Positions 27,595 through 64,000 are shown, counted from the first letter of the stretch. The stretch is 64,000 bases of DNA from Thermodesulfobacteriota bacterium (GCA_965215275.1 OZ244044.1:576001-640000); one strand, 5' to 3'. Numbers and translations: made by a program. The notes: generated from the sequence alone by a model not told the origin.

Positions 27595-30500
27595 CTACGT
27601 CTTTATCTGATATCTTCTCTTCCTTCTGATAGCTACTGACACGGGTATAAGTATCAGACATGCCATTACTCCAAGCAGATCAGGAACAACGTTGCTCTGA
27701 TCTGAGACAGCACATCCTCCTCCACCTCCACCTGCTTCAGTATCTGGTGCTGGTCTTGGTCTTGGATTTGGTGGTGGCGGCGGAGCAGGAGGAGCCTCTA
27801 CAATAAGTATGAAACTCACCTCATCCGTATCTCCATTCCTGTCCGTTACTATATACCTGTAAGTATCAGTCGATGCTCTCGTCGGTGTGCCACTTATTTC
27901 TCGGGTAACTTCGTTAAAACTCAATCCAGCTGGCAGATCAGGAGTTATACTGTAAGTAACTGGTGGATTCCCTCCCGTTGCCTCTGGCAGCGTTATTGGT
28001 CTCCCTGCTGTGTACTCCATTTGAGTAGAAATTGTCGTACCGTCAAGGTCTGGAGTGCTGTCTTCTTCTATTGTTATTCTGAACATCAACTCAGCTGTAT
28101 CTCCATCTACATCTGTAACACTCCATGTATAAGGAGTTTCATGCATCGCAGTAGTGGGTGTACCGCTTATTTCTTGAGTAGCTGAGTTAAAACTCAATCC
28201 AGTTGGCAATGCAGGCGTTATACTGTACCTTAATCCTCCATTCCCTGATGTTGCTGCAGGCAGCGTTACCGGTGTTATTGAACTCCCTGCTATATATTCC
28301 TTATCATCTATCGTCTCACCACTAAAAGTTGGCATTGCGTCTGCTAATATTGTGATCCCGAACATCAACTCAGCTGTATCTCCATCTACGTCAGTTACAG
28401 TATATGTATAAACTGTTCTGCTCGCTGCAGTAGTCGGTGTCCCGCTTATCTCGCGGGTAGCAGGGGTAAAAATCAATCCAGCAGGTAATCCAGGTGTTAT
28501 ACTGTAAGTTAATGTTCCGTTCCCTCCCGCTGCTGCAGGCAGCGTTACCGGAAGGTTTATTGTTTTCCCTGCTATGTACTCCTGATCATCTATCATATCA
28601 CTGAAGGTTGGTTCTTCATTTGCAGTTACAGTGATACCGAACGTCAACTTTGCAGTATCTCCATCTATGTCTTCTACCGTATATGTATAAGTATCCTTAC
28701 TCATTGCAGTAGCCGGTGTCCCACTTATCTCGCGGGTATTTTCGTTAAAATCCAATCCAGTTGGTAACTTAGGTGTTAAACTGTAAGTTAATGTTCCATT
28801 CCCTCCTGCTGCCTCAGGCAGCGTTACTGGAATGTTTATTGTTTTCCCTGCTATGTACTCCTGATTAGCTATCGTATCACTGAAACTTGGTTCTTCGTTT
28901 GCAGCTACTGTGATACCGAAACTCAAATCAGCCGTATCTCCATCTATGTCTTCTACCGTATATGTATAAGTATCCTTACTCATTGCAGTAGCCGGTGTCC
29001 CACTTATCTCGCGGGTAGCAGAGGTAAAGATTAATCCAGTCGGTAATGCAGGCGTTAAACTGTAAGTTAATGGAGCATTTCCTCCCGCTGCTGCAGGCAG
29101 TGTCACCGGAAGGTTTGTCGTTTTCCCTGCTATATACTCCTGATTAGCTATCGTATCACTGAAACTTGGTTCTTCGTTTGCAGCTACTGTGATACCGAAA
29201 CTCAAATCAGCCGTATCTCCATCTTTGTCTCTTACCGTATACGTGTAAGTACCAGATGATGCACTCGCAGGTGTGCCGCTTATCACTCGGGTAGATGCGT
29301 TAAAATACAATCCAGTTGGTAACTTAGGTGTTAAACTGTAAGTTAATGGAGCATTCCCTCCCGCTGCTGCAGGTAATGTTACAGGAAGGTTTGTTGTTTT
29401 CCCTGCTATGTACTCCTGATCGGTTATCGCATCACTGAAGGCTGGTTCTTCGTTTGCAGCCACTGTGATACCGAAACTCAATTCATCCGTATCCCCGTCT
29501 TCGTCCGTTACTGTATATGTATAAACTGTTCTGCTCGCTGCAGTAGTCGGTGTCCCGCTTATCTCGCGGTGGGGGGGGGTAGATGCGTTAAAATTCAATC
29601 CAGTTGGTAATGTTGGGGTTATACTGTATCTTAATGCTCCATTCCCTCCCGTTGCCTCAGGTAGTATTTCCGTTACTGCGATACCCGTCAGATACTCCTT
29701 ATCAGCTATCATCTCACCGCCAAAAGTCGGTTCTGTGTCTGCTTCTACCGTGATCCCAAACCTTAACTCAAACCTATCTCCGTCTTTGTCTCTTACCGTA
29801 TACGTGTAAGTACCAGATGATGCACTCACAGGTGTGCCGCTTATCACTCGGGTAGATGCGCTAAAATTTAATCCAGCAGGTAATATAGGTGTTATACTGT
29901 AAGTTAATGGAGCATTCCCTCCCGCTGCTGCGGGCAGTGTTACCGGAAGGTTCGTTGCCGTCCCTGCTACGTACTCCTGATCATCTATCGTCTCACTGAA
30001 AGTTGGTCTGTCGTCTGCAGCTACTGTGATCCCGAACATCAGATCATCCGTATCTCCGTCTTTATCTGTTACCGTATACGTGTAAGTATCCTCAGGCATT
30101 GCAGTAGTGGGTGTGCCACTTAGCACTCGGGTAATTTCGTTCAAATCCAATCCAGCAGGTAAAGCAGGCGTTATAGTATATCTTAATGTTCCATTCCCTC
30201 CCGTTGCCTCAGGCAGCGTTACAGGAAGGTTTGTTGTTTTCCCTGCTATGTACTCCTGATCACCTATCATCTTACCGCCAAAGTCCGGCAGGCTGTCTGC
30301 TTCTACCGTGATCCCGAATGTCAAATCATCCGTATCTCCGTCTTTGTCTCTTACCGTATACGTGTAAGTATCCTTAGGCATTGCAGCAGTGGGTGCGCCA
30401 CTTATCTCTCGGGTAGCAGGGGTAAAGATCAATCCAGCAGGTAAAGAAGGATTTAAACTGTATATTAAATCTCCATTCCCTCCCGTTGCCTCAGGCAGCG

Positions 30501-33500
30501 TTACAGGAAGATTTGCTGTTTTCCCTGCTACGTACTCCTTATCAGCTATCATATTACCGCCAAAGTCCGGCATGCTGTCTGCTTCTACCGTGATCCCGAA
30601 CGTCAGATCATCACTATCTCCGTCTTTGTCTGTTACAGTATATGTATACATTCTCTTATTCGTTGCAGTAGTGGGTGTGCCACTTATCTCTCGGGTGGTT
30701 TCGTCAAAATCCAATCCAGCAGGTAAATCAGGTGTTATAGTGTATCTTAATGTTCCATTCCCTCCCGTTGCTTCAGGCAGCGTTACTGGAAGATTTGTTG
30801 TTTTCCCTGCTACGTACTCCTTATCAGCTATCATATTACCGCCAAATTCCGGCATGCTGTCAGTTTCTACTGTGATCCCGAACGTCAGATCAGCTGTATC
30901 TCCTTCTTCGTCTCTTACCGTATACGTGTAAGTACCAGATGATGCACTCTCAGGTGTGCCACTTAGCACTCGGGTAGCAGGGGTAAAGATCAATCCAGCT
31001 GGTAAAGCAGGTGTTATACTATAGGTTAATGCTCCATCCCCTCCCACTGCAACAGGTAGAGTTTCCGTTATTGCTGTATCCGTAACATACTCCTTATCAG
31101 ATATAGTCTCGCCGCTAAAGGTCGGCACATCAGATCCTACAGTGATCCCGAACTTTATTTGATCTGTATCTCCATCACCATCGATAACAGTATATGTATA
31201 CATGGTCTTACTCGTTACAGTAGTGGGTGTTCCACTTATCTCTCGGGTGGTTTCGTCAAAATCCAATCCATCTGGTAAAAAAGAGAATATGACGGGTATA
31301 TCAGAAGGAGCTAAACTGTACGTTAAGGTTCCATTCCCTCCCGTTGCAGCAGGTAGTATTTCCGTTACTGCGACACCCGTCAGATACTCCTTATCAGCTA
31401 TCATATTACTGCCAAAGTCCGGCATTCTGTCAGCTTCTACCGTGATCCCGAACGTCAACTCATCCGTATCTCCTTCTTCGTCTTCTGCTGTATACGTGTA
31501 AACAGTCTTACTCATTGCAGTAGTGGGTGTTCCGCTTATCTCTCGGGTAGCAGGGGTAAAGATCAATCCAGTTGGTAAAGCAGGTGTTATACTATAGGTT
31601 AATGCTCCATCCCCTCCCACTGCAACAGGTAGAGTTTCCGTTATTGCTGTATCCGTAACATACTCCTTATCAGATATAGTCTCGCCGCTAAAGGTCGGCA
31701 CATCAGATCCTACAGTGATCCCGAACTTTATTTGAGATGTATCTCCTTCATCATCAGTAGCAGCATATGTATACATGGTCTTGCTCGTTACAGTAGTGGG
31801 TGTCCCGCTTATCTCTCGGGTGGCTTCGTCAAAATCCAATCCATCCGGCAAAGCAGGTGTTAAACTATAAATTAATGTTCCATTCCCTCCCGCTGCCTCA
31901 GGCAGTGTTTCCGTTACTGCAATACCCGTCAGATACTCCTTATCAGTTATCATATTACTGCTAAAGCTTGGTACTGTATCGTCACTCCTATGACCATAGA
32001 CTTTGATACTCCACGAGTGCAAGGTCCCGACATCTCTAGAAGCAGTATCAGAGATATTAAGGGTCCATTCTCCAGCAGGATCTTCTCCTAGGTGTTTAGC
32101 TGAACCAAAACGATGAGTGTAATTGGTATAAGAGGTACGTGTTCCAAAAAGAAAAGCAAAGACCATAGCTCCCTGTACATGCTCCTTTGAAAGTTTCGAC
32201 ACGGTACCGTCAGGGGAGGTTATCTGTATCTCCAGATCTGCAAAGAAAGTGTGAGTGAACCTGAGATTGATCTCTACAAATTCCGTAAAAAGGTCAGTAT
32301 CGGATATGTTCAGGCTGGAAATAATTTCTCCGTCTGCTCCACCTGTGTGATCGGGGATCGCTGTATTAATATTACCCGAGGAAGCAGTCAGGGTTTTCAT
32401 CTGTGCAACCCGGTTCCAATTTTCGGCAAGTTCCACTGCCGCTTCAGCATCTACTACGCCAAAACCGTACTTTGGATTGTAATTATAACTGTCTGTATCA
32501 GAACCGTATTTAAGTGCTCCCGTTTCCCAGCCCGGGTCGGTCGGGTCGTTCCTGCGAGCTGAAGCTGCCAGTATCAACTTCAGGTCCCTCCAGCTCAGAT
32601 CACCGTTTACCTCTCTCATCAGTGCTGCTACACCTGAAACGGCCGGAGCGGAAAATGATGTTCCTTCCTCTCTAAAACCATAGCGGTCGTTATTAGCGGT
32701 CGTTGTAATAAACGAACCTGGAGCACATATCCATAGACTTACTCCCTCTTCTGAAAAGGAACTTTTCCTGCCGAAACCGTCTACTGAACAGACAGAAGTT
32801 ACGGCGTAGTAATTAGAATACTCTTCAAAATTAGCTTGGTCGTATAAAGTATGTCCATTTCCAGCCGACCAGACATAAAAAACTCCTTTACCACCAAACC
32901 CTTCCCTGATACCCGTTTCCACTGCCAGTTCCCAGGCTCTCCCGGAATTATGAAGACTGGGACGATCTGTTGCTCCCCAGCTGTTGCTGGATACCGCTGT
33001 TATAACGTGATTACGGGTCATAGCGTCTGCTATATTAGCTGAAGTACCATTACTCCCATCTAACAAGTTATAACTGTAGATACTTGCCTGAGGTGCTACC
33101 CCTCTCACGCCCAGTTCATTATCACCCACTGCCGCTATAACGCCCCCTGTTCGTGTACCATGACCTAAAGGACTGAATACATTATCGTTTCCGGAGTAAT
33201 CATGATTGAGGTCGGAATTCACATTGTCAGCAAGGTCCTCATGATCGGAGTCTATACCATCATCGACCACCGCAACGTTAATGCCACTCGCCAATATTTC
33301 ATCATTCCAGACCCCCTCCACGTTTATATCCTCTCCGGCGGTTATTCTCTGCCCGTTAAATCTCCACTGCCCCGTATTGTTCAGATGCCACTGACAACCG
33401 TATAAAGGGTCGTCGGGAAAACCGGTGATAAGGTCCTCACAATCAGAGGAAGAAGTATTATCTCTGGTATCCGTTATAACCTGAAGCTGGTACTGGTCGG

Positions 33501-51291: not shown

Positions 51292-52606
51292 ATGTCATTC
51301 AGAACAATACCCCCCCCCGTCTAATCTGTTAATCCATTTTTTCTTTCTTCTGTGTTTTGTATCCATTGAGGCATATGGTCAGAGCGATAATGATTGTGGT
51401 GGTGCATCCAGTGCGGCTATTGAAGCCACGTTGCAGCTGGACGGAATGCAGCAAGAGGGGGGTTTTGTCAGCGGTGGAATGCATTACTATCAGATAGACG
51501 TAACGACCCCTGTTATAGCAAATATAAGGATAGGTATATTAGTTTCTTTCAGCACTCGAGAAAAAAGTTTACAGCTGTGTGACAGCAATTATGATCTGAT
51601 AGACATTGATACTTTTGGAACTGAAAGATCTACTGGGAATATTTCAGCTCGCCTCAGAACGGGAACGTACTATGCCGTTGTGAAAGTTGGTGATACTGTG
51701 GGATACAGGGTTTCAGTTGCAACGGTCGTTAATAACTGTGACGCCAGTACAAGTACAGAAGACACGCTGGAGGTTGACGGAGGTCCGAAAAACGGAAGTC
51801 TGAGCACAGGTGAACTGGATTACTTTCAGTTAGACGTAACGGATGATACCGTAATAGATATAGAGATGGATGAACTATCATCCACCACCAGGGTCTCAAT
51901 ACAGCTGTGTGACAGCAGTGACGGTCTTATAGCCAGTGATACTTTTGGACAGTTTATTGACAGAACTGCCGGTACCATCAGGGCTTTTGTCAGAACGGGA
52001 ACGTACTACGTCTACGTGGGAAGCAATAGTGCTGTATCGTACAGGGTTTCAGTTGCAACGGCTGATGACTGTGACTTCAGTGAAACTGCTGAAGCCACGT
52101 TGATGGTGGACGCGGCGGCACATGATGGAAAGTTAAGTGCCGGTGATGAGCTTCATTATTTTCAGATAGGTCCAGCAAACGATATCAGTGTAACCATAGA
52201 GGCAGTTTTCACCCATGATAACCCTGATAACAGTTTACAGCTGTGTGACGGCAGTGATGATCTGATAGACGTTAGTGCTGACAGTATTTCAGCTCTTCTA
52301 ATACAGGGAACGAGTTACTATATAGTTGTGGGAAGCAGTGCTCCTAATGATTATATGCTTACAGTCGAAGAAAGAGATACTGATCCTCCGCCTCCTCCGA
52401 CACCGCCACCACCACCAAGACCAGACCCACCATCACCAGACCCAAGTCCAAGAGCATCAGATACTGAAGCTGGAGGTGGTGGAGGGTGTGCGATCTCAGA
52501 TCAGAACGAAGCTGTTTACGATCTGCTCGCAGCAGTGGCATCTCTGATGCTTATACCCGTATCTGTAGTTATAAGAAGGAAGATAAGGTCTCATATAAAA
52601 ACTTAG
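51292..52606 (+). CDS. surface-anchored protein with three Cys-containing PPC-like modules; start codon out of frame across a C9 tract
   Basis: ATG 51292 runs into TAA just after C9 (51310-51318); with one C fewer it reads MSFRTIPPPSNLLIHFFFLLCFVSIEAYGQ into ORF 51431-52606; C-terminal Pro-rich linker, GGGGGC, TM, RRK. Confidence 0.75.
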
Positions 52607-54000: not shown

Positions 54001-55494
54001 TCAGTCGATGCCTTCCGTGGCCTCTTTTATGGACTTATAAGTCACCTGGACGAGTTTTTTCAGATCGTCCATGGGTATTCCTACCGGAGGCATCAATACC
54101 ACTACGTCGCCAAGAGGTCTTATAAGCACCTCATCCTCCAGAGCCTTGTCGGCAACTTTCCAGCCCATTTTCAGACCCGGCTTAAATCGTTCACCGGTTT
54201 TTTTATCCTTTACCAGCTCAATACCGACCATAAATCCCTTGTTCCTGACGTTACCCACGTGATCCAAAGACAAAAACTCCTTGAGCTCGTCTTCAAGGAA
54301 CTCTATCTTATCCCGAAGTTCTTCAAGAACGTTATTGTTCCTGAAGGCCTCAAGGTTTCCCTTGGCCGCGGCACACGATAAGGGATTTCCCGCATAGCTG
54401 TGCCCGTGATAAAACGTTTTATACTCCTCGTAACTTCCCAGAAATTCATCATAGATATCCTGAGTCGTTATCGTGGCAGAAAGAGGCAGATAACCTCCGG
54501 TCAGCCCTTTGCCAAGAACTAAAATATCCGGAGTAACGTCCTCATGCTCGCAGGCGAACATCTTTCCCGTTCTGCCAAACCCGGTGGCAACTTCGTCCAG
54601 TATCATTAAAACGTCATACATGTCACAGTACTCCCTGACCCTTTTGAGATAGCCTTCAGGAGAAACTATCATTCCTCCAGCAGCCTGGACGTAAGGTTCC
54701 ATAATGACCGCCGCGATTTCCTCGTTGTTTTTCTCAAGGAGACTTCCGAGTTCATCGGCACAGGCAATATCACACTCCGGATAGGTCTTGTTAAGCGGAC
54801 ATCTGTAACAGTAATACGAAGGAGCTTTGAAAGACTCGAACAGAAGAGGCTTGAAAGTGGAATGGAACAGGTCAATTCCACCTACCGAGACCGCACCGAG
54901 CGTATCTCCGTGGTAGCCATTTTCCAGATGTACGAACCTGATCTTATTTTCCTTACCCTTGTGCTGCCAGTACTGAAAGGCCATTTTAATGGCCACTTCA
55001 ACCGCAGAAGCTCCATCACCTGAATAAAAGACCTTCTTCAGTCCAGAGGGACATATATCAATTATCTCTTTTGCCAGTTCCGCAGCAGGCGGGTTCGTAA
55101 CGCCCAGAAGCGTACTGTGAGCAAGGGTCTTTATCTGTTCATTTATGGCATCATCAATTTCAGGGACCTTATGACCGTGGACATTTACCCATAAGGATGA
55201 AACACCATCTATATATTTTTTTCCTTTGGAGTCAATAAGATAAGCCCCGTCCGAATCCTCAATAACGATCGGGTCTTTTTCCTCATATTCCTTCATCTGG
55301 GTAAAGGGATGCCAGATGTGGTCCTTATCATATTTGCTGATCTTTTTCGTGCTATCTGACATTTTGAGAAACTGTAAAAGTAAGTCCCGTAGGTAATGTA
55401 GGAGACTGATCTTGTTCGTACTATCCGACATTTTGAAAGTCATCTGTTCAAATTTCTTATCTTTACGACTGATCTTGTTCGTACTATCCGACAT
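54001..55494 (-). CDS. bioA: adenosylmethionine-8-amino-7-oxononanoate aminotransferase (triplicated N-terminus)
   Basis: IWHPFTQM, SSLWVNVHGH, YHGDT, DEVATGFGRTG, GKGLTGGYLP, HGHSYAGNP. Confidence 0.95.
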   Translation of the reverse strand: MSDSTNKISRKDKKFEQMTFKMSDSTNKISLLHYLRDLLLQFLKMSDSTKKISKYDKDHIWHPFTQMKEYEEKDPIVIEDSDGAYLIDSKGKKYIDGVSSLWVNVHGHKVPEIDDAINEQIKTLAHSTLLGVTNPPAAELAKEIIDICPSGLKKVFYSGDGASAVEVAIKMAFQYWQHKGKENKIRFVHLENGYHGDTLGAVSVGGIDLFHSTFKPLLFESFKAPSYYCYRCPLNKTYPECDIACADELGSLLEKNNEEIAAVIMEPYVQAAGGMIVSPEGYLKRVREYCDMYDVLMILDEVATGFGRTGKMFACEHEDVTPDILVLGKGLTGGYLPLSATITTQDIYDEFLGSYEEYKTFYHGHSYAGNPLSCAAAKGNLEAFRNNNVLEELRDKIEFLEDELKEFLSLDHVGNVRNKGFMVGIELVKDKKTGERFKPGLKMGWKVADKALEDEVLIRPLGDVVVLMPPVGIPMDDLKKLVQVTYKSIKEATEGID

Positions 55495-57501: not shown

Positions 57502-57720
57502 ATGAAAAGTTCAAATATAAAAACGAGTAGTTCCATTACCCCCCCCCATCTAAATCAGTCCTTACCTTGGTCTTATTTCTTCTGTGCTTTATGCCCATAG
57601 GTGCATATGGTCATATCAAAGCTAATTATTGTGAGTCCAGTGAAACTGCACTGACAGTGGATGGAACTGCACACGATGGAAGTTTTGAGAGTCCCGGGGG
57701 ATGAGATTATTTTCAGAGAT
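57502..57720 (+). pseudogene. truncated remnant of a third surface-protein family member
   Basis: ATG 57502, C9 tract 57539-57547, then in another frame LVLFLLCFMPIGAYGHIKANYCESSETALTVDGTAHDGSFESPGG*DYFQ, homologous to the N-terminus of the 2092-aa protease. Confidence 0.82.
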
Positions 57721-58153
57721 ACATGTCTCATATAAAAACATAGCAACGCAGTTCTTTCCAAAGTATTGAACGGACTGAAATTTTCTCGTCAGAATATCCG
57801 CCGGCTGCTAACGTCATGTCTGTAGTTTATATCTTCAATGGAAAAGATATGTACCCCCTTATTGACAGTAAAACTCAAGAGAGAATTATAGCCTGGTTTT
57901 CTTTTATTAATTCGTTGAGGAGAACGGATGTATTATCGTGTATTGAATTAATAAACTATTTATCAACATCTTTGAGTCTCGTGTTTGGAAAAAATTTTTT
58001 CTCCGAAAACAATTATTTAACTTATCAAGTTATCCTTATAATTTTCATATTTTATTAAAAATTGAGCAATAAGTAACTTGATTATTCCTTAATAGAATTT
58101 TTAGAAAAAGAGAAGAAACTGTGTTTTTGATTGTTGAAATAGTAAAAATTGTT

Positions 58154-58861
58154 TTAGGGTTGTTTTTTGTGGATGGGACTATAATTATCTTCCAAAATAC
58201 TCAGTATATTCTGAAATTTCTTAGGAGGGATTTTTTTCACAAAACACCTATATACTTTGTAATGAGAACCACAATCTCTAAATTTTTTCTGACTACCGCA
58301 AAAACACAAATGGTGCCCCCTATTATGATTTTTCCCTGAGCAAATTTTAATAAAATCCTTTATTTGTTCAATAGAAGTATTTTTGCCTAATTTTTCCTTA
58401 TAAAACTCTGTAATACTTTTCTTTTTATCATGTGGGTATTCCCCAAATATCCAACCTTCCTTTACCCTACTAAAGTAGGATTGAGAAAAAAAGAACGGAT
58501 AAACTAAGTTGTCAATGAAACTTTTAAAAGGAGCATCCAGATCAATTCTCATCCACTGTTCTTCATCCATTCCTAAACAACAAACACCATCAGTATAAAA
58601 ATGTTTATTGGCATTTTTATCTTTTATTCTATTTCCAGATTCTAGAACCCTAGGCAAACTTTTTGGAAAGTTTTTATAGAAAATTAGTTGAATTTCAAAA
58701 TCATCTATATGAATTTTATCCGCATAAACTCCAAGACGACCAGAAATAATTAAATTTCCGTCCTTATCACAAGAATTTTTTATTCTTTGAAAAAAACGAT
58801 GATCCTGCGATTCCTTTATTATCTTGTGATAATATTTATTATTTACTATAATCTCCTCCAT
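58154..58861 (-). CDS. prokaryotic E2/UBC-like protein with C-terminal SEC-C zinc-binding motif (CBASS ancillary)
   Basis: FPKSLPRVLE...KHFYTDGVCCLG resembles the E2 active-site segment; LCFCGSQKKFRDCG resembles SEC-C; overlaps the cyclase stop. Confidence 0.7.
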   Translation of the reverse strand: MEEIIVNNKYYHKIIKESQDHRFFQRIKNSCDKDGNLIISGRLGVYADKIHIDDFEIQLIFYKNFPKSLPRVLESGNRIKDKNANKHFYTDGVCCLGMDEEQWMRIDLDAPFKSFIDNLVYPFFFSQSYFSRVKEGWIFGEYPHDKKKSITEFYKEKLGKNTSIEQIKDFIKICSGKNHNRGHHLCFCGSQKKFRDCGSHYKVYRCFVKKIPPKKFQNILSILEDNYSPIHKKQP

Positions 58862-59873
58862 AAAGCTTTGGACCAATCACAGCAGTACCTGATTTTACTG
58901 CTGCATCCATAGCAGATATTTTTCTTTGTTTATCGTTGTGGTCTTCTTCCAAAGGAAAATCCTCTCCAAACTGTTCTATTAAAATCTTGCAAGCCTTTTC
59001 TAAACTCTTTTCATTAATTGCTTTCTCTAAAGCTTCATCAAGTTTAGCGAATCTATCAATAAGGTTAGTCATCCCTTCGTCACTAATTTTACCAAAAACA
59101 TCTTCATCTTTAGTAGGGGGTTTTTTTACAGTAATTCTTGAGCTATTTATAGAAATTACAACACTTCTTAAAGCCTCTATATCACTAAGGTTGTCATCAG
59201 AATCAAAAACAGGCTTTTTAAGTTCTTCTATACATAAAAGAAGCAATGCTAAGCCAATGGGTTTGTCATCACTTTCGTTCGGTATTGCTTTATCATTCCA
59301 CCTTTTTAAATAACGAACAACTCTTTGTAATTGATCTGAACCACTGCTATCGTTAGAGTCGCTAAAAGGTTTTCGAGCATCTTTAATGTATTTCTTTAAA
59401 GCTTTAGGGTCTGCAGGTTTCCAAGTCCAATTTTTATGAGCAAGGTTAAAATTTTCACTCTCTTGAGAGTCATTGCTTGCATAACAAACAAGATCAACAT
59501 GGTAACCCGCTCTATAACGTACACGAATGCAAGCCCCTTTCTCTTCTACATTTTTAGTGTGATTTTTAATAGCATCCAAAACCCACTTGCGTACTTTTTC
59601 TGCTTTATAACCGTCTTCTGCGCTATAATCGTCAGACTCTATATCAAAGACTAAACCAACATCAATATCATATTCTTGATCATCAGAAATTGGCTTTATT
59701 CCTACTCCATAAATATAGCTTCCTTGGTTAAGTAGCTCTGGAACAGGTTTTTCCTGCTCCTGAAGAGATTCTTTTATTTCGTTAAACAAAATATCTCTTT
59801 TTTCTTTTAATTCGTCTTTTTCCACTTTTATATCTTTGTGGAAGCTTTCAAACTGTTTTTGTAAATTGGCCAT
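58839..59873 (-). CDS. CD-NTase (SMODS/cGAS-DncV-like cyclic oligonucleotide synthase)
   Basis: QGSY...IKP...EYDIDVG, K.ACIRV.Y, HVDLVCY, W..ADP, VRYLKRW; GGAGG RBS before ATG 59873. Confidence 0.9.
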   Translation of the reverse strand: MANLQKQFESFHKDIKVEKDELKEKRDILFNEIKESLQEQEKPVPELLNQGSYIYGVGIKPISDDQEYDIDVGLVFDIESDDYSAEDGYKAEKVRKWVLDAIKNHTKNVEEKGACIRVRYRAGYHVDLVCYASNDSQESENFNLAHKNWTWKPADPKALKKYIKDARKPFSDSNDSSGSDQLQRVVRYLKRWNDKAIPNESDDKPIGLALLLLCIEELKKPVFDSDDNLSDIEALRSVVISINSSRITVKKPPTKDEDVFGKISDEGMTNLIDRFAKLDEALEKAINEKSLEKACKILIEQFGEDFPLEEDHNDKQRKISAMDAAVKSGTAVIGPKLYGGDYSK

Positions 59874-60982
59874 GGGTACCTCCTTCTGGTAAGTCATTTA
59901 AGTTAATAAAAATATTTTTTAATATATTGAGTTTTGTATCTTCAGTTTCATTACAGGTTTTACCATAAATCTCCTTTCCGTCTTCTGCTCCCAAGCTAAT
60001 TAAAGTATTACAGGCTTCTTTGGTTGCCTTATCAAGACCAATAACTTTTTCTTGAGCAGAAGATAAACACCTTTGTGGTAGTCTATAAATAGATACCTTC
60101 TTTCCTAAAGCTGACAATCTCTTCTCTAGGAAATTACATATAAATTCAACATTCTTAGCTTGAGCGTTCCCCGAAATTTCTAATATATCAACTCCCCAAC
60201 CCCAGTCTATAATACCTTTTTCTACATTCTCATCTTTAAGAGTTTCTCCAAAACTGGCTGGGCAGGTTCCAATTGAAATAATATCTATAGGCTGATTTTT
60301 ATCTGAAATCTCTAAAGCTTCAATCAAACCCATTAGTGTTGGATTATTTGCCCAAATACCCCCATCAACAAAATGTTCTGTTACATTTGAATTATCTGGT
60401 TCAGGAATAGCTACTACAGGGAAAATAATTGGTGCAGCTGAAGTAGCAAGACAAACATCTGCTAAATTCCTTTTATTATCAGCATGTTTTTTGGGATTGT
60501 GAGGAGTTTTAAATACTCTTGGCGAATAGTCCACCAGTTTAATTGATGCAATACAAAGTCCTATTTTCCTTCGAGTATAAATTTGTTCAATTGTTTCGTC
60601 TTTAAAGAGTTCTTCTAATATAACTCTTAAATGCTTATTTTCATTTGCTGGTTTTTTTTATATGACAAAAAGCCCAAATAATTTTTCTTAAAAAATTATT
60701 TGGTACCGGAGATTTAAAAATATTTTTTCCTTCTTTGTAATAAATTTCAATGATTTTATCAATCTCAATGCCTGCAACAAGACCTGCTGCTAGAATGCCA
60801 CCTGTACTTGTTCCAACTATCAGGTCAAAACCTTTGCCTATATCCTTATTGCTTGATTTGCAAAACCTCTCAGAAAGGGATTTTAGCAATGATGCAGTAT
60901 AGAGACCCCTCATTCCTCCACCATCTAAAGAAAGCACTCTATAAGGCTTAAAGTGTTCTTTGTCTTTTAATTTTTCATACAT
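59848..60982 (-). pseudogene. patatin-like phospholipase (CapV-type CBASS effector), frameshifted in an A8 tract
   Basis: LSLDGGGMRG and GTSTG in the 5' ORF, ATSAAP and DGGIWANNP in the 3' ORF; removing one T from 60652-60659 joins them. Confidence 0.85.
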
Positions 60983-61107
60983 TACACTACCCCTATGCTT
61001 GAAACCATATTGCCTAAATAAACAAATTTTTCTCTTGAAATATCATTGTTTTTGTTATAACATATAATTATACCTTATTGGCATATTAAAATCAAGGAAG
61101 GCTTGCT

Positions 61108-62904
61108 GTGAAAGATAAATTATTGAAAATAAGAAAAAAACTCAATCTCAGTCAAGAAGAGCTTGCCACAAGGCTAGAAGTTTCTTTCGCTACAGTCAAC
61201 CGTTGGGAAAATAGCAAGACGACCATTAGAAAGAAGGCAAAAGAAAGAATAGAAGAACTTTACAGAAATGTTGCCTACATAGACGAGACTGTAGAAACAG
61301 ATATAAGTGCAAGAAGAAAAAAAAGAGGGGTTTCCAAAAGTTCAATTCTGAGCAATAAATCTATGGAGAAAATGCTATGGAATGCGGCTTGCTCCATAAG
61401 AGGCGAAAAAGATGCTCCTAAATTTAAAGATTATATTCTTCCACTTCTTTTTATCAAACGGCTTTCAGATGTATTTGATGATGAGGTTAAGCGAATTACT
61501 GAAGAGTTAGGTGATGAACAGACAGCCTTAAAAATGATTAGGGCAGATAGGTCTCTAGTTTGGTTTTACATTCCTCCAGAAGCACATTGGTCTGTTATCA
61601 GTGGAAAAGAAAAAATTAAATACCCTAAGGGTAAAAGACCTCATAGTTTAGGAGAGCAATTAACCTTAACAATGAGAGCTATTGTTAAAGAAAACCCACA
61701 GCATTCATTAGGTGGTGTGACAGACCTTGTGGATTACAATGCCACTCAACAAGGGGAAAGAAAAATCAGTGATAGAGTTTTAAGAAGAATTATAGATGCT
61801 TTTTCTGATTCAAGATACCGCTTGGGTTTAAAGGATATTGAACCTGATTCTTTAGGTCGATCTTATGAGTATCTTCTCAGAAAATTTGCTGAAGGCAGAG
61901 GCCAAACTGCTGGAGAGTTTTTTACTCCTCGTGAAGTCGGTTTTATTATAGCAAATATTCTAAATCCGAAAGGTGGAGAGACCGCCTATGACTATGCTTG
62001 TGGTTCTTTTGGTCTTTTAGTTAAACTCCAATTGGTATTAAGACAAAATAATCCTCTGAACAGACTTCCTTTAAAACTTTACGGACAGGAATTAAACAAG
62101 GACAACTTTATATTAGGGTGCATGAATAAAATTCTTCATGACATTGATGGAGAAATTAAACGAGGGGATTCCATGCAAAAACCTAGGTTTCGCGAAAAAG
62201 ATGGAACTCTTAAAACCTTTGACATAATTATAGCCAACCCTATATGGAATCAGCCTTTCGACCCCTCTATTTATGAAAACGATCCTTTTGAGCGATTTGA
62301 AAATCATGGTGGCTTTACTGCTGGTAAAGGAGACTGGGCTTGGCTTCAACATACTGCAGCTTCTCTTAATTCAAAAGGTCGTGCTGCAATTGTTTTAGAT
62401 ACAGGAGCCGTTACTCGTGGCAGTGGCAGTAAACACGATGATAAAGAAAAGATGATTCGAAAATGGTTTATAGAAAAGGATTTAATAGAAGGAGTTATTT
62501 TATTTCCTGAAAACCTTTTCTATAACACTTCAGCTGCCGGGATTATTGTTTTCTTAAATAAAAATAAGCCAAAAAATAAAAGGGATAAAATCATATTATT
62601 AAATGCCAGCAAAGAATTCTATAAGGGAAGACCAAAAAACCATATCTCAGAAGAAGGCATTGAGCGGATCGCAGAAGCTTTTATAAAAGGAGAAGATGAA
62701 GAAAAATTTGTGAAAGTCATCACGAAAAGAGAAGCAGAAAAAAATGATTACAACCTATCCCCCTCTCTATATATTAGTTTAGTGGATACAGAAACTTATA
62801 GAGAAATCCCTGAAGTGCTTGATGAACTTAAAAACTTAAGAAAAAAATCAAACAAGCTTGATAAAGAACTTAGTGAAGTGATGTTCTTGATAGAGCTTAA
62901 TTAA
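61108..62904 (+). CDS. hsdM: type I R-M methyltransferase subunit with N-terminal XRE HTH
   Basis: LNLSQEELATRLEVSFATVNRWE HTH; YEYLL, GEFFTPREV, YDYACGSFG, ANPIW, ENLFYNT, YNLSPSLY. Confidence 0.88.
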   Translation: MKDKLLKIRKKLNLSQEELATRLEVSFATVNRWENSKTTIRKKAKERIEELYRNVAYIDETVETDISARRKKRGVSKSSILSNKSMEKMLWNAACSIRGEKDAPKFKDYILPLLFIKRLSDVFDDEVKRITEELGDEQTALKMIRADRSLVWFYIPPEAHWSVISGKEKIKYPKGKRPHSLGEQLTLTMRAIVKENPQHSLGGVTDLVDYNATQQGERKISDRVLRRIIDAFSDSRYRLGLKDIEPDSLGRSYEYLLRKFAEGRGQTAGEFFTPREVGFIIANILNPKGGETAYDYACGSFGLLVKLQLVLRQNNPLNRLPLKLYGQELNKDNFILGCMNKILHDIDGEIKRGDSMQKPRFREKDGTLKTFDIIIANPIWNQPFDPSIYENDPFERFENHGGFTAGKGDWAWLQHTAASLNSKGRAAIVLDTGAVTRGSGSKHDDKEKMIRKWFIEKDLIEGVILFPENLFYNTSAAGIIVFLNKNKPKNKRDKIILLNASKEFYKGRPKNHISEEGIERIAEAFIKGEDEEKFVKVITKREAEKNDYNLSPSLYISLVDTETYREIPEVLDELKNLRKKSNKLDKELSEVMFLIELN

Positions 62905-63164
62905 GAGAGAAACTTTATGAAAATAAACCAAAATCAGAAGAAAAAAGATAATCTTATTTTAAAACCGTAAAATTAGAAAGGTTGGCATAATTAAAGAAAT
63001 AATACTACTCTGTAATGTATGTTTTATGAACTTTGACAGACAGTATTGATCCAACAGATTATTATAAGGAAAATACGAAAAAGAGATAGGCAAAAGAGTG
63101 ATTTTCAAAAAAACTATTTGAGCAAAACAAAGCAATTAAATTCAAAAATAAAAGGAAATATAAT

Positions 63165-63827
63165 ATGGAACAAAAGAACAATCAAACCTCCCCCAATCAA
63201 AATTATACAGCACCTGAATATGATAAAAACAATTTCCATTGCCCCCACTGCAATGTTTACGCTCATCAAATCTGGCATTATGCCAGCCGTGCAGGGTACT
63301 CCTCATATTCTATTAAAAACATTAAATTTAGCTTCTGTAGTTGTTGCAACAAATACTCTATATGGGTGGATGAAAAAATGGTTTATCCTAACCTACCTAC
63401 AGTTCCACCTCCTGTTGCTGAAATGCCAAAAAATGTAAAAGAAACCTATAATCAAGCAAGAAGTATTATAAACCTCTCCCCAATTGGAGCTTGTGCTTTG
63501 TTAAGACTATCCATTCAATTACTTATTAAAGAACTCGGAGAGGATGAAACAAATTTAAGCAAGGCTATCGGTAACTTGGTCAAAAAAGGATTGCCAGAAA
63601 GAATTACACAAGCTTTAGATTCAGTAAGGGTCATTGGAAACAACGCAGTTCATTCAGGGAAAATAAATATTGAAGATAATTCAAAAATAGCTAGTTCTTT
63701 ATTTCAACTTGTAAATTTTATTACTGAAAAAACAATTGTAGAAAACAAACAGGTTGAAAGAATTTTTAACTATTTACCTGAAAATCAAAAACAAGCAATA
63801 GAAAGAAGAGATAATAATAATAGTTAA
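63165..63827 (+). CDS. DUF4145-domain protein with N-terminal Zn ribbon
   Basis: FHCPHC...CSCC, then YNQARSI...ACALLR, VRVIGNNAVH. Confidence 0.8.
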   Translation: MEQKNNQTSPNQNYTAPEYDKNNFHCPHCNVYAHQIWHYASRAGYSSYSIKNIKFSFCSCCNKYSIWVDEKMVYPNLPTVPPPVAEMPKNVKETYNQARSIINLSPIGACALLRLSIQLLIKELGEDETNLSKAIGNLVKKGLPERITQALDSVRVIGNNAVHSGKINIEDNSKIASSLFQLVNFITEKTIVENKQVERIFNYLPENQKQAIERRDNNNS

Positions 63828-63838
63828 AGTCTAAAAAT

Positions 63839-64000
63839 ATGGAAAAAACCAAGCAAACAAAAATTGGAGAAATTCCTGAGAGTTGGAATCTTAAAACTCT
63901 AAAAGAAGGGGCTAATATTAGTTCAGGAAATTCCGCTCCTCAAGAAAATAGTTTTTTTATAAATGGGAAATTTCCTTTTTGCAGAACTTCAGACGTAGCT
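63839..64000 (+). CDS. hsdS: type I R-M specificity subunit (3'-truncated by window edge)
   Basis: Read by hand: MEKTKQTKIGEIPESWNLKTLKEGANISSGNSAPQ, a typical HsdS N-terminus; downstream of hsdM. Confidence 0.78.
   Translation, partial: MEKTKQTKIGEIPESWNLKTLKEGANISSGNSAPQENSFFINGKFPFCRTSDVA

Follow-up and report, generated by a model that had tools for sequence, protein, structure and literature searches.

Three adjacent genes of a Thermodesulfobacteriota bacterium encode a patatin effector, a CD-NTase with a Gly-Gly doublet near its C-terminus, and an E2-like protein extended by a SEC-C module; the question that this locus raises is what in the cyclase tail such an E2 would act upon in an operon where no E1 and no JAB gene follow. 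The window, that is, the whole stretch of 64,000 nucleotides analysed here (GCA_965215275.1 OZ244044.1:576001-640000), holds the three genes in the same orientation on the minus strand, each overlapping the next, by 26 bp between patatin and cyclase and by 23 bp between cyclase and E2 (Table 1). The ORF coordinates thus agree with a preliminary description of this DNA, which had reported three overlapping, co-oriented genes. Its statement that neither E1 nor JAB follows was likewise borne out, both by the neighbours, a short ORF, then a decayed remnant and then bioB downstream of the E2 gene, and by tblastn of the whole genome with four queries, two homologues each of Cap2 and Cap3, which returned no match; supply of Cap2 and Cap3 from another site in the genome was ruled out on these searches. 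No second copy of the patatin or of the cyclase was found in the genome. By gene content, with a stand-alone E2 beside the cyclase and no E1 or JAB in the operon, the locus is an E2-only (type II short) CBASS. The operon lies in a stretch with a GC content of 29-35%, versus ~45% across most of the window. A promoter-like match lies upstream of the patatin gene; the promoter scan gave 21 sites against 17.3 expected, a set not above chance, and the terminator scan likewise gave a set not above that of shuffled sequence.

Table 1. Features of the operon, with positions counted from the first letter of the window.
Feature	Position	Strand	Remarks
Sigma-70-like promoter match upstream of patatin, 10/12 consensus positions	61067..61095	-	consensus match only
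Patatin, both pieces together	60982-59848	-	broken frame
Patatin N-terminal piece, 113 aa, CapV-like phospholipase	60641..60982	-	DGGG-x-RG and GTSTG motifs; stop just past the frameshift
A8 run (T8 on the plus strand), site of the patatin frame change	60652..60659	-	homopolymer
Patatin C-terminal piece, second frame, catalytic DGG motif	59848..60651	-	in-frame GTG at 60534
CD-NTase, 344 aa, intact	58839..59873	-	NF041078, PADLOC and PDB matches
Cyclase tail, P335-K-L-Y338-G339-G340-D-Y-S-K344	58839..58871	-	variant of [KR]-P-[WYH]-x, Leu for the conserved Pro
Stand-alone E2, 235 aa	58154..58861	-	UBC fold at ~residues 1-145, then helices and SEC-C knuckle

Several other features were recorded in the window and elsewhere in the genome. 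Divergent from the operon, in window 61108-64000 together with G000:C1:639839-641104, an Xre-type HTH fused to the type I methyltransferase HsdM is followed by a PD-T7-4/DUF4145 gene and then by an HsdS-like gene, with no HsdR-sized gene in the next 10 kb; the Xre-type HTH could be a regulator of the island. At window 51431-52606 there is a C-terminal Gly-rich/Cys/transmembrane/basic tail resembling a sorting signal, which recurs at dozens of sites genome-wide, is often accompanied by a repeated extracellular domain and has a decayed copy at ~57550-57750. Repeats were also observed in the start segment of bioA (three near-copies, window 55320-55494, minus strand), in a tandem array of ~279-bp units (10.4 plus 2.4 copies, window 28148-31966), likely a repeat-domain surface protein, and as internal duplications at G000:C1:937654-938610 and G000:C1:940484-941881, where one ORF repeats a unit of 24 aa and an RmuC-like gene likewise contains a repeated unit.

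The cyclase scored 159.3 bits against the cGAMP synthase model NF041078 (cut-off 150) and matched PADLOC (8e-88) and the PDB entries 8ysn (1e-35) and 7ljo (6e-22). Its start codon is the ATG at 59873, preceded by an AGGAGG site, and the homology with 8ysn starts at the same Met; the active-site residues G51-S52, D69, D71 and D127 are invariant in relatives. As regards the hallmarks of CBASS, an intact CD-NTase active site is present, and the patatin effector is adjacent but frameshifted. The likely product is cGAMP, to judge from the matches to NF041078 and NF041079, the latter by the N-terminal half of the patatin and under the cut-off. We take the enzyme to be DncV/CdnB-like and to belong under the 'clade B' label. 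Viral contigs contained no relative of the cyclase and only one TIR, which is tailless.

The identity of the effector as a patatin stood, but the gene is no single ORF: it runs in two frames, broken at the T8 run of the plus strand (60652-60659), a break to which the preliminary description had alluded only by its mention of a 'frame-repaired effector'. The N-terminal piece matches Pfam Patatin (8e-16) and the PADLOC CBASS phospholipase (3e-34), and the C-terminal piece matches the same family (Pfam 1e-8; PADLOC 1e-48), the protein being presumably a CapV; 11 intact relatives, 47-65% identical, align through the break point. With its patatin frame broken, this copy of the CBASS is probably inactive. 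It is quite unlikely that the operon is active, with full-length patatin made in part of the population, whether the A8 run allows slippage or phase variation or stems from a faulty assembly. Such a state would agree with a break that sits in a homopolymer, with catalytic motifs kept in both halves and with intact cyclase and E2 genes, and the break is not spanned by the independent runs X5 and X6; however, contigs from runs X1 and X2 (one study, depth 110 and 61), which may be the assembly's own source, show the A8 run without an indel, relatives conserve no poly-Lys stretch at this place, A/T 8-mers number 240 in the genome, and the Pro-to-Leu change in the cyclase tail also fits relaxed selection.

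In the last gene, both segments noticed beforehand, HFYTDGVCCL and CFCGSQKKFRDC, are present, and its product could be recognized as E2-like with a SEC-C module. The key residues are H87, C95 and H144 in the E2 part and C186, C188, C197 and H200 in the knuckle, a CxC...C plus His arrangement. With the single sequence, a PDB search gave no match and a word-indexed homologue search found only the protein itself and one sibling; HMMER (E <= 0.001) then retrieved 1,264 clusters, formed at 50% identity, as members of the family. Among PDB entries the family profile matched UBC enzymes at 1.8e-6 and SecA zinc peptides at 1.6e-5. The AF2 model (pLDDT 92.4) agrees with a UBC fold. Foldseek returned nothing at E <= 0.001, with top rows that are all UBC/UEV folds, and VIA aligned the Serratia E2 (8hsb_B) at Z 9.6 and rmsd 3.7 over 134 residues, the longest alignment in the list, in a tie with eukaryotic UFC1/UEV (Z 9.6-10.3). 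This alignment reaches residue 154 of the model; the region beyond was barely covered by the fold searches.

Conservation was assessed in an alignment of 150 proteins, comprising 148 of the top HMMER matches in addition to the query and its sibling. C95 and H144 are kept in all 150 and H87 in 148. The three cysteines of the knuckle are retained in 148, 147 and 148 of the proteins; the fourth ligand is a His at +3 in the present E2, as in 7 of the 150. Pfam SEC-C matches 54 of the 150 members, the present E2 by itself falling under the Pfam cut-off, and Pfam E2-ntca (PF20298) matches 12. From its motif, the knuckle would bind zinc. No lysine is invariant among the aligned proteins, and K146-K148 of the present E2 are not conserved. 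The best PADLOC match is the CBASS E2 model PDLC00865 (1e-42, residues 23-224, knuckle included), one of the E2 models for type II (short) CBASS (PDLC00865, 00872, 00861, 00871). Judged from these profiles and alignments, the E2/SEC-C fusion is real and the norm of its family; a rare, one-off fusion was ruled out by the 1,264 clusters, and the PADLOC models likewise show that the architecture is not rare.

The tail PKLYGGDYSK is present at the end of the cyclase. It had been called a low-complexity tail; it is instead a variant of a specific family motif, Pro-[Trp/Tyr/His]-x. Among 120 listed of the 143 cyclase homologues found, 103 end in P-[WYHF]-x(2-8), 14 have Ser/Ala-rich tails and three have other tails (the present K-L-Y, one S-Y-G and one fragment). 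The aromatic residue of the 103 is Trp in 61, Tyr in 25, His in 16 and Phe in one, and the residue that follows it spans 11 amino acids, with Gly in 26 and Arg in 14. After the aromatic, no tail of the 103 has one residue and 24 have exactly two; two loci, L109 and L045, the latter with a broken cyclase, do show a single residue after Trp. At position 337 the present cyclase has Leu, in contrast to the Pro found in at least 90% of 105 relatives.

These counts bear directly on the Gly-Gly doublet, which had been put forward as a conserved conjugation signal. An aromatic residue followed by two glycines occurs in two of the 120 listed close cyclases, the present one and its 77%-identical sibling P0004. 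The codons for Y-G-G-D are also, in the other frame, the start codons M-E-E of the E2, and the presence of the doublet can be explained by this overlap; the two protein sequences of the sibling point to the same arrangement there. On these grounds the doublet was rejected as the signal. That a ubiquitin-like di-glycine, exposed by a cut after G340, is nonetheless the conserved signal of conjugation is highly improbable: its occurrence here and in P0004, and the two partners of short E2s that end in YGG-x, would agree with it, against its rarity among close homologues and the double duty of its codons.

The type of tail was then compared with the accessory genes across genomes. The cyclase survey covered 80 of 170 confirmed genome loci. 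Fifteen have an E2/SEC-C gene, all with patatin upstream and with tails of the P-[WYH] type (14) or S-Y-G (one). In 49 loci, called as E1-E2 by motif and length with PADLOC confirmation for L009 only, the tails are of the Ser/Ala/Gly type; one of these (L069) also fits P-H, and the cyclase of L086 is broken. Eleven loci are tailless and have neither partner, and at five a contig end interrupts the locus. Among the genomes the nearest relative is L009 (L009:3956-7149), whose cyclase is 63% and patatin 65% identical; it has Cap2 and Cap3 and a Ser/Ala tail. In a quick tree built with the tails removed, which of the 80 loci left out L024, L025, L030, L036, L045, L056 and L086, L009 groups with the present cyclase in a 16-row set that otherwise has E2/SEC-C (support 99). 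This placement indicates that tail and accessory genes were swapped as a unit at least once, in either direction.

A second survey that started from the E2 gave, seeds excluded, matches in 11 of 119 genomes of the same phylum; for three other phyla the numbers were 3, 4 and 10 of 350, about 1-3% of the genomes sampled there. The upstream partner ends in P-[WYH]-x in 22 of 23 non-redundant loci, and these partners are 19 CD-NTases (best matches in three PADLOC models), two PycC and one TIR; the lone exception is a short, knuckle-less E2 with a cyclase ending in F-Y-G-E. This count requires a separate upstream gene; set aside from it were the three seeds, a duplicate, a locus at a contig start, a remnant and a rearranged gene. 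The homologues of the E2 are therefore linked to CD-NTases and other signal synthases with the motif tail, in keeping with the preliminary description. As a control, the short-E2 model retrieved 17 E2s, none with a knuckle; among the 15 partners that could be read, 14 have an aromatic-Gly ending and one a Leu-Gly ending (there are also one fusion and one E2 for which no partner was found), and in the aromatic-Gly tails, too, at least two residues follow the aromatic. Outside the 23 loci, L006, L007, L097 and L121 are natural fusions of cyclase and E2/SEC-C in which [KR]-P-Y-A is retained within the linker, where it may serve for self-cleavage; the fusion in L121 ends before the knuckle.

The motif also occurs on other signal enzymes. 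Two Pycsar cyclases (L117:461-2133 and L119; PADLOC PycC 4e-135 and 5e-155) end in K-P-Y-F-x directly upstream of the E2. Among TIR homologues, a P-W tail was found in 13 of 14 long and in none of 106 short proteins, and the E2 is next door in 3/3 tailed versus 0/79 tailless loci, 63 of the latter having at least 300 nt downstream and 2 further loci being cut. One of the three lies in this same genome: L100:596-2169, plus strand (G000:C1:942235-943808), is a second intact operon, cyclase-free, with SLATT_1, a ThsB-like TIR and E2/SEC-C, in which the TIR bears a 25-residue extension ending in P-W-S-S; L123 and L124 share this layout. The three tailed TIR loci are likely a single lineage, and they, like many Bdellovibrionales loci, are kin and not independent events. 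Taken as observed, the Pro-[Trp/Tyr/His]-x tail tracks the knuckle E2 over CD-NTases, two Pycsar cyclases and three TIR proteins, knuckle-less E2s go with aromatic-Gly tails, and Cap2/Cap3 go with Ser/Ala tails.

To this co-variation a modelled complex of cyclase and E2 can be added. It scored 0.70, versus 0.02 for the best of three controls, passing a mark that 116 of 157 solved complexes and 2 of 215 mismatched pairs also attained; contact agreement between runs was at least 89% and partner pLDDT at least 82. The modelled contacts join cyclase residues 331-343 with E2 residues 87-90, 95-98 and 137-146, and the interface on the cyclase also takes in residues 315-326. Residues 334-337 of the tail run along E2 139-142, with C95, H87 and H144 inside the interface, and the tail is thus predicted to lie in the active-site groove of the E2; the knuckle is outside the confident interface residues but may still make contact. 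The model, whose pass may perhaps come from its likeness to the solved CdnG-E2 complex, supports binding rather than any particular cut site. Of the proposal that the tail is conjugated via the E2, the part that survives is that the tail is a likely substrate of the enzyme, on co-variation and on the model, and the part that falls is the Gly-Gly signal.

For the chemistry, the Serratia enzyme offers a guide. As reported, the Serratia E2 cuts G406|E407 without cofactor, forms a thioester on C101 helped by H87 and uses H152, parks the cyclase on K159, with defence not lost in K159A, and, once its C-terminal loop is perturbed, yields polymers of the cyclase that are activating; G406R, G406V and G406L are inactive (10.1101/2022.05.25.493364). 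By spacing and by the range of the VIA alignment, C95, H87 and H144 of the present E2 appear to correspond to Serratia C101, H87 and H152. In both classes of E2 at least two residues follow the aromatic, which favours cleavage behind the first of them, here G339. Taking this and the above correspondence into consideration, we propose the following as the probable, though not assured, course of events in an E2-only CBASS: with Cys95 and His87 the E2 would cleave the tail of the cyclase after Gly339 and, no E1 being needed, keep the cyclase bound as a thioester; on phage infection the cyclase would be turned on, and the resulting cGAMP would activate the patatin lipase, whose gene is now frameshifted, leaving this copy probably inactive. 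The cut would most probably fall after G339, less probably after Y338 and with only a small chance after G340. Trimming to expose a Gly, as first suggested, is hence probably right here, at the first Gly (339) and owing to the preceding aromatic. Three elements of this scheme are carried over from Serratia: a likely transpeptidation, a cyclase that would be kept inhibited for as long as the E2 holds it, and polymers of the cyclase that would activate it. E1-free transpeptidation needs a leaving group after the cut.

Several observations speak against this reading: of the 103 tails no more than 26 have Gly behind the aromatic and 14 have Arg, versus the inactive Serratia G406R, G406V and G406L; L109 and L045, with one residue after Trp, are off register; Leu337 replaces the conserved Pro; and the E2 offers no invariant lysine as acceptor. 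The first two would be accommodated if the E2 cut right after the aromatic (Tyr338 here, Trp in most members) and joined the cyclase via Trp, Tyr or His and not via Gly or Ala, with the aromatic as the best-conserved position of the tail and a variable residue behind it; we consider this unlikely, given that no tail of the 103 has one trailing residue, a minimum of two that matches the register of Serratia Y405-G406|E407 and the short-E2 controls. A further alternative, in which the E2 forms no stable conjugates and works as a switch, either a protease that just clips the bound tail or an inhibitor that grips the cyclase non-covalently, would agree with the missing invariant acceptor lysine and with the bulky residues at the presumed P1. 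It is very unlikely, however, since the complete Cys/His/His set of the conjugating Serratia enzyme is retained, and defence is not lost in Serratia K159A, so that a fixed lysine is dispensable.

Returning to the favoured reading of thioester formation after Gly339, the knuckle remains to be placed. Because the knuckle region follows H144, in the place of the Serratia regulatory loop, we infer that it could act as a lid or a sensor; the sensor role that the preliminary description suggested for SEC-C is plausible. That the helices and the zinc knuckle replace the regulatory C-terminal loop of the Serratia E2 and receive the phage trigger is a finely balanced suggestion, leaning slightly to the doubtful side. 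In the text available of the Serratia study, a term search gave zero mentions of zinc and SEC-C (10.1101/2022.05.25.493364).

The locus itself is ordinary, probably a dead copy of a catalogued variant of E2-only CBASS that is unstudied in the literature covered, and the subclass carries the greater weight. The only E2-only CBASS studied so far is reported to require a conserved Gly at the terminus, a rule that the knuckle E2 family breaks; the family has a conserved appendage, metal-binding by its motif, where the studied enzyme has a regulatory loop; and it serves three kinds of signal enzyme, by which the question of what triggers E2-CBASS becomes testable. It is possible, and we put it forward only tentatively, that knuckle E2 and Pro-aromatic tail form a portable, E1-free conjugation cassette with a third tail code beside those of Cap2 and short E2, transferred onto three unrelated kinds of signal synthase, namely CD-NTases, Pycsar cyclases and TIR enzymes, and joining via residues other than Gly, including Arg, Cys and Ser, with the knuckle as shared phage sensor. 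The parts of the literature that were available contain no text that separates a zinc-knuckle/Pro-aromatic from a short-E2/aromatic-Gly subclass, and a logo may show the motif (Extended Data Fig. 8a of 10.1101/2022.03.31.486616); within the same scope the search gave no description of a knuckle-bearing E2 or of its tail, and the source paper of PF20298 may hold one.

Compared with known systems, the SEC-C of PMC11381338 belongs to an unrelated system. The second operon of this genome, SLATT plus TIR, resembles type VII Thoeris (TIR plus SLATT); tailed TIRs with CBASS ancillary genes have been described, and the accessible part of that work names Cap2/Cap3 and Cap9-11 and not an E2-only partner or a Pro-Trp tail (10.64898/2025.12.03.692087). 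With Cap2/Cap3 type II CBASS the locus shares the cyclase lineage and the patatin effector, but here E1 and JAB are lacking, the tail is another one and conjugation is likely to proceed without need of ATP. Compared with Serratia marcescens SmCdnG-SmE2 (PDB 8HSB), the present E2 has 235 aa with extra helices and the SEC-C knuckle, against ~160 aa; the 344-aa cyclase, with only ~37 residues after the core, probably has no room for the extra helix and three-strand motif of CdnG; the terminal Gly is not conserved in the subclass (26/103); and the effector is a broken patatin instead of 2TM-SAVED. Both systems consist of a cyclase and a stand-alone E2 without E1 or JAB, both E2s have a UBC fold with a Cys and two His, and the present cyclase, too, ends in aromatic-Gly plus extra residues. 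Type II (short) CBASS comprises 616 systems, 74% of them of clade G (PMC12948482), and with the catalogued type the present locus agrees in that its three genes match the PADLOC models for effector, cyclase and E2, the check that the preliminary description had proposed.
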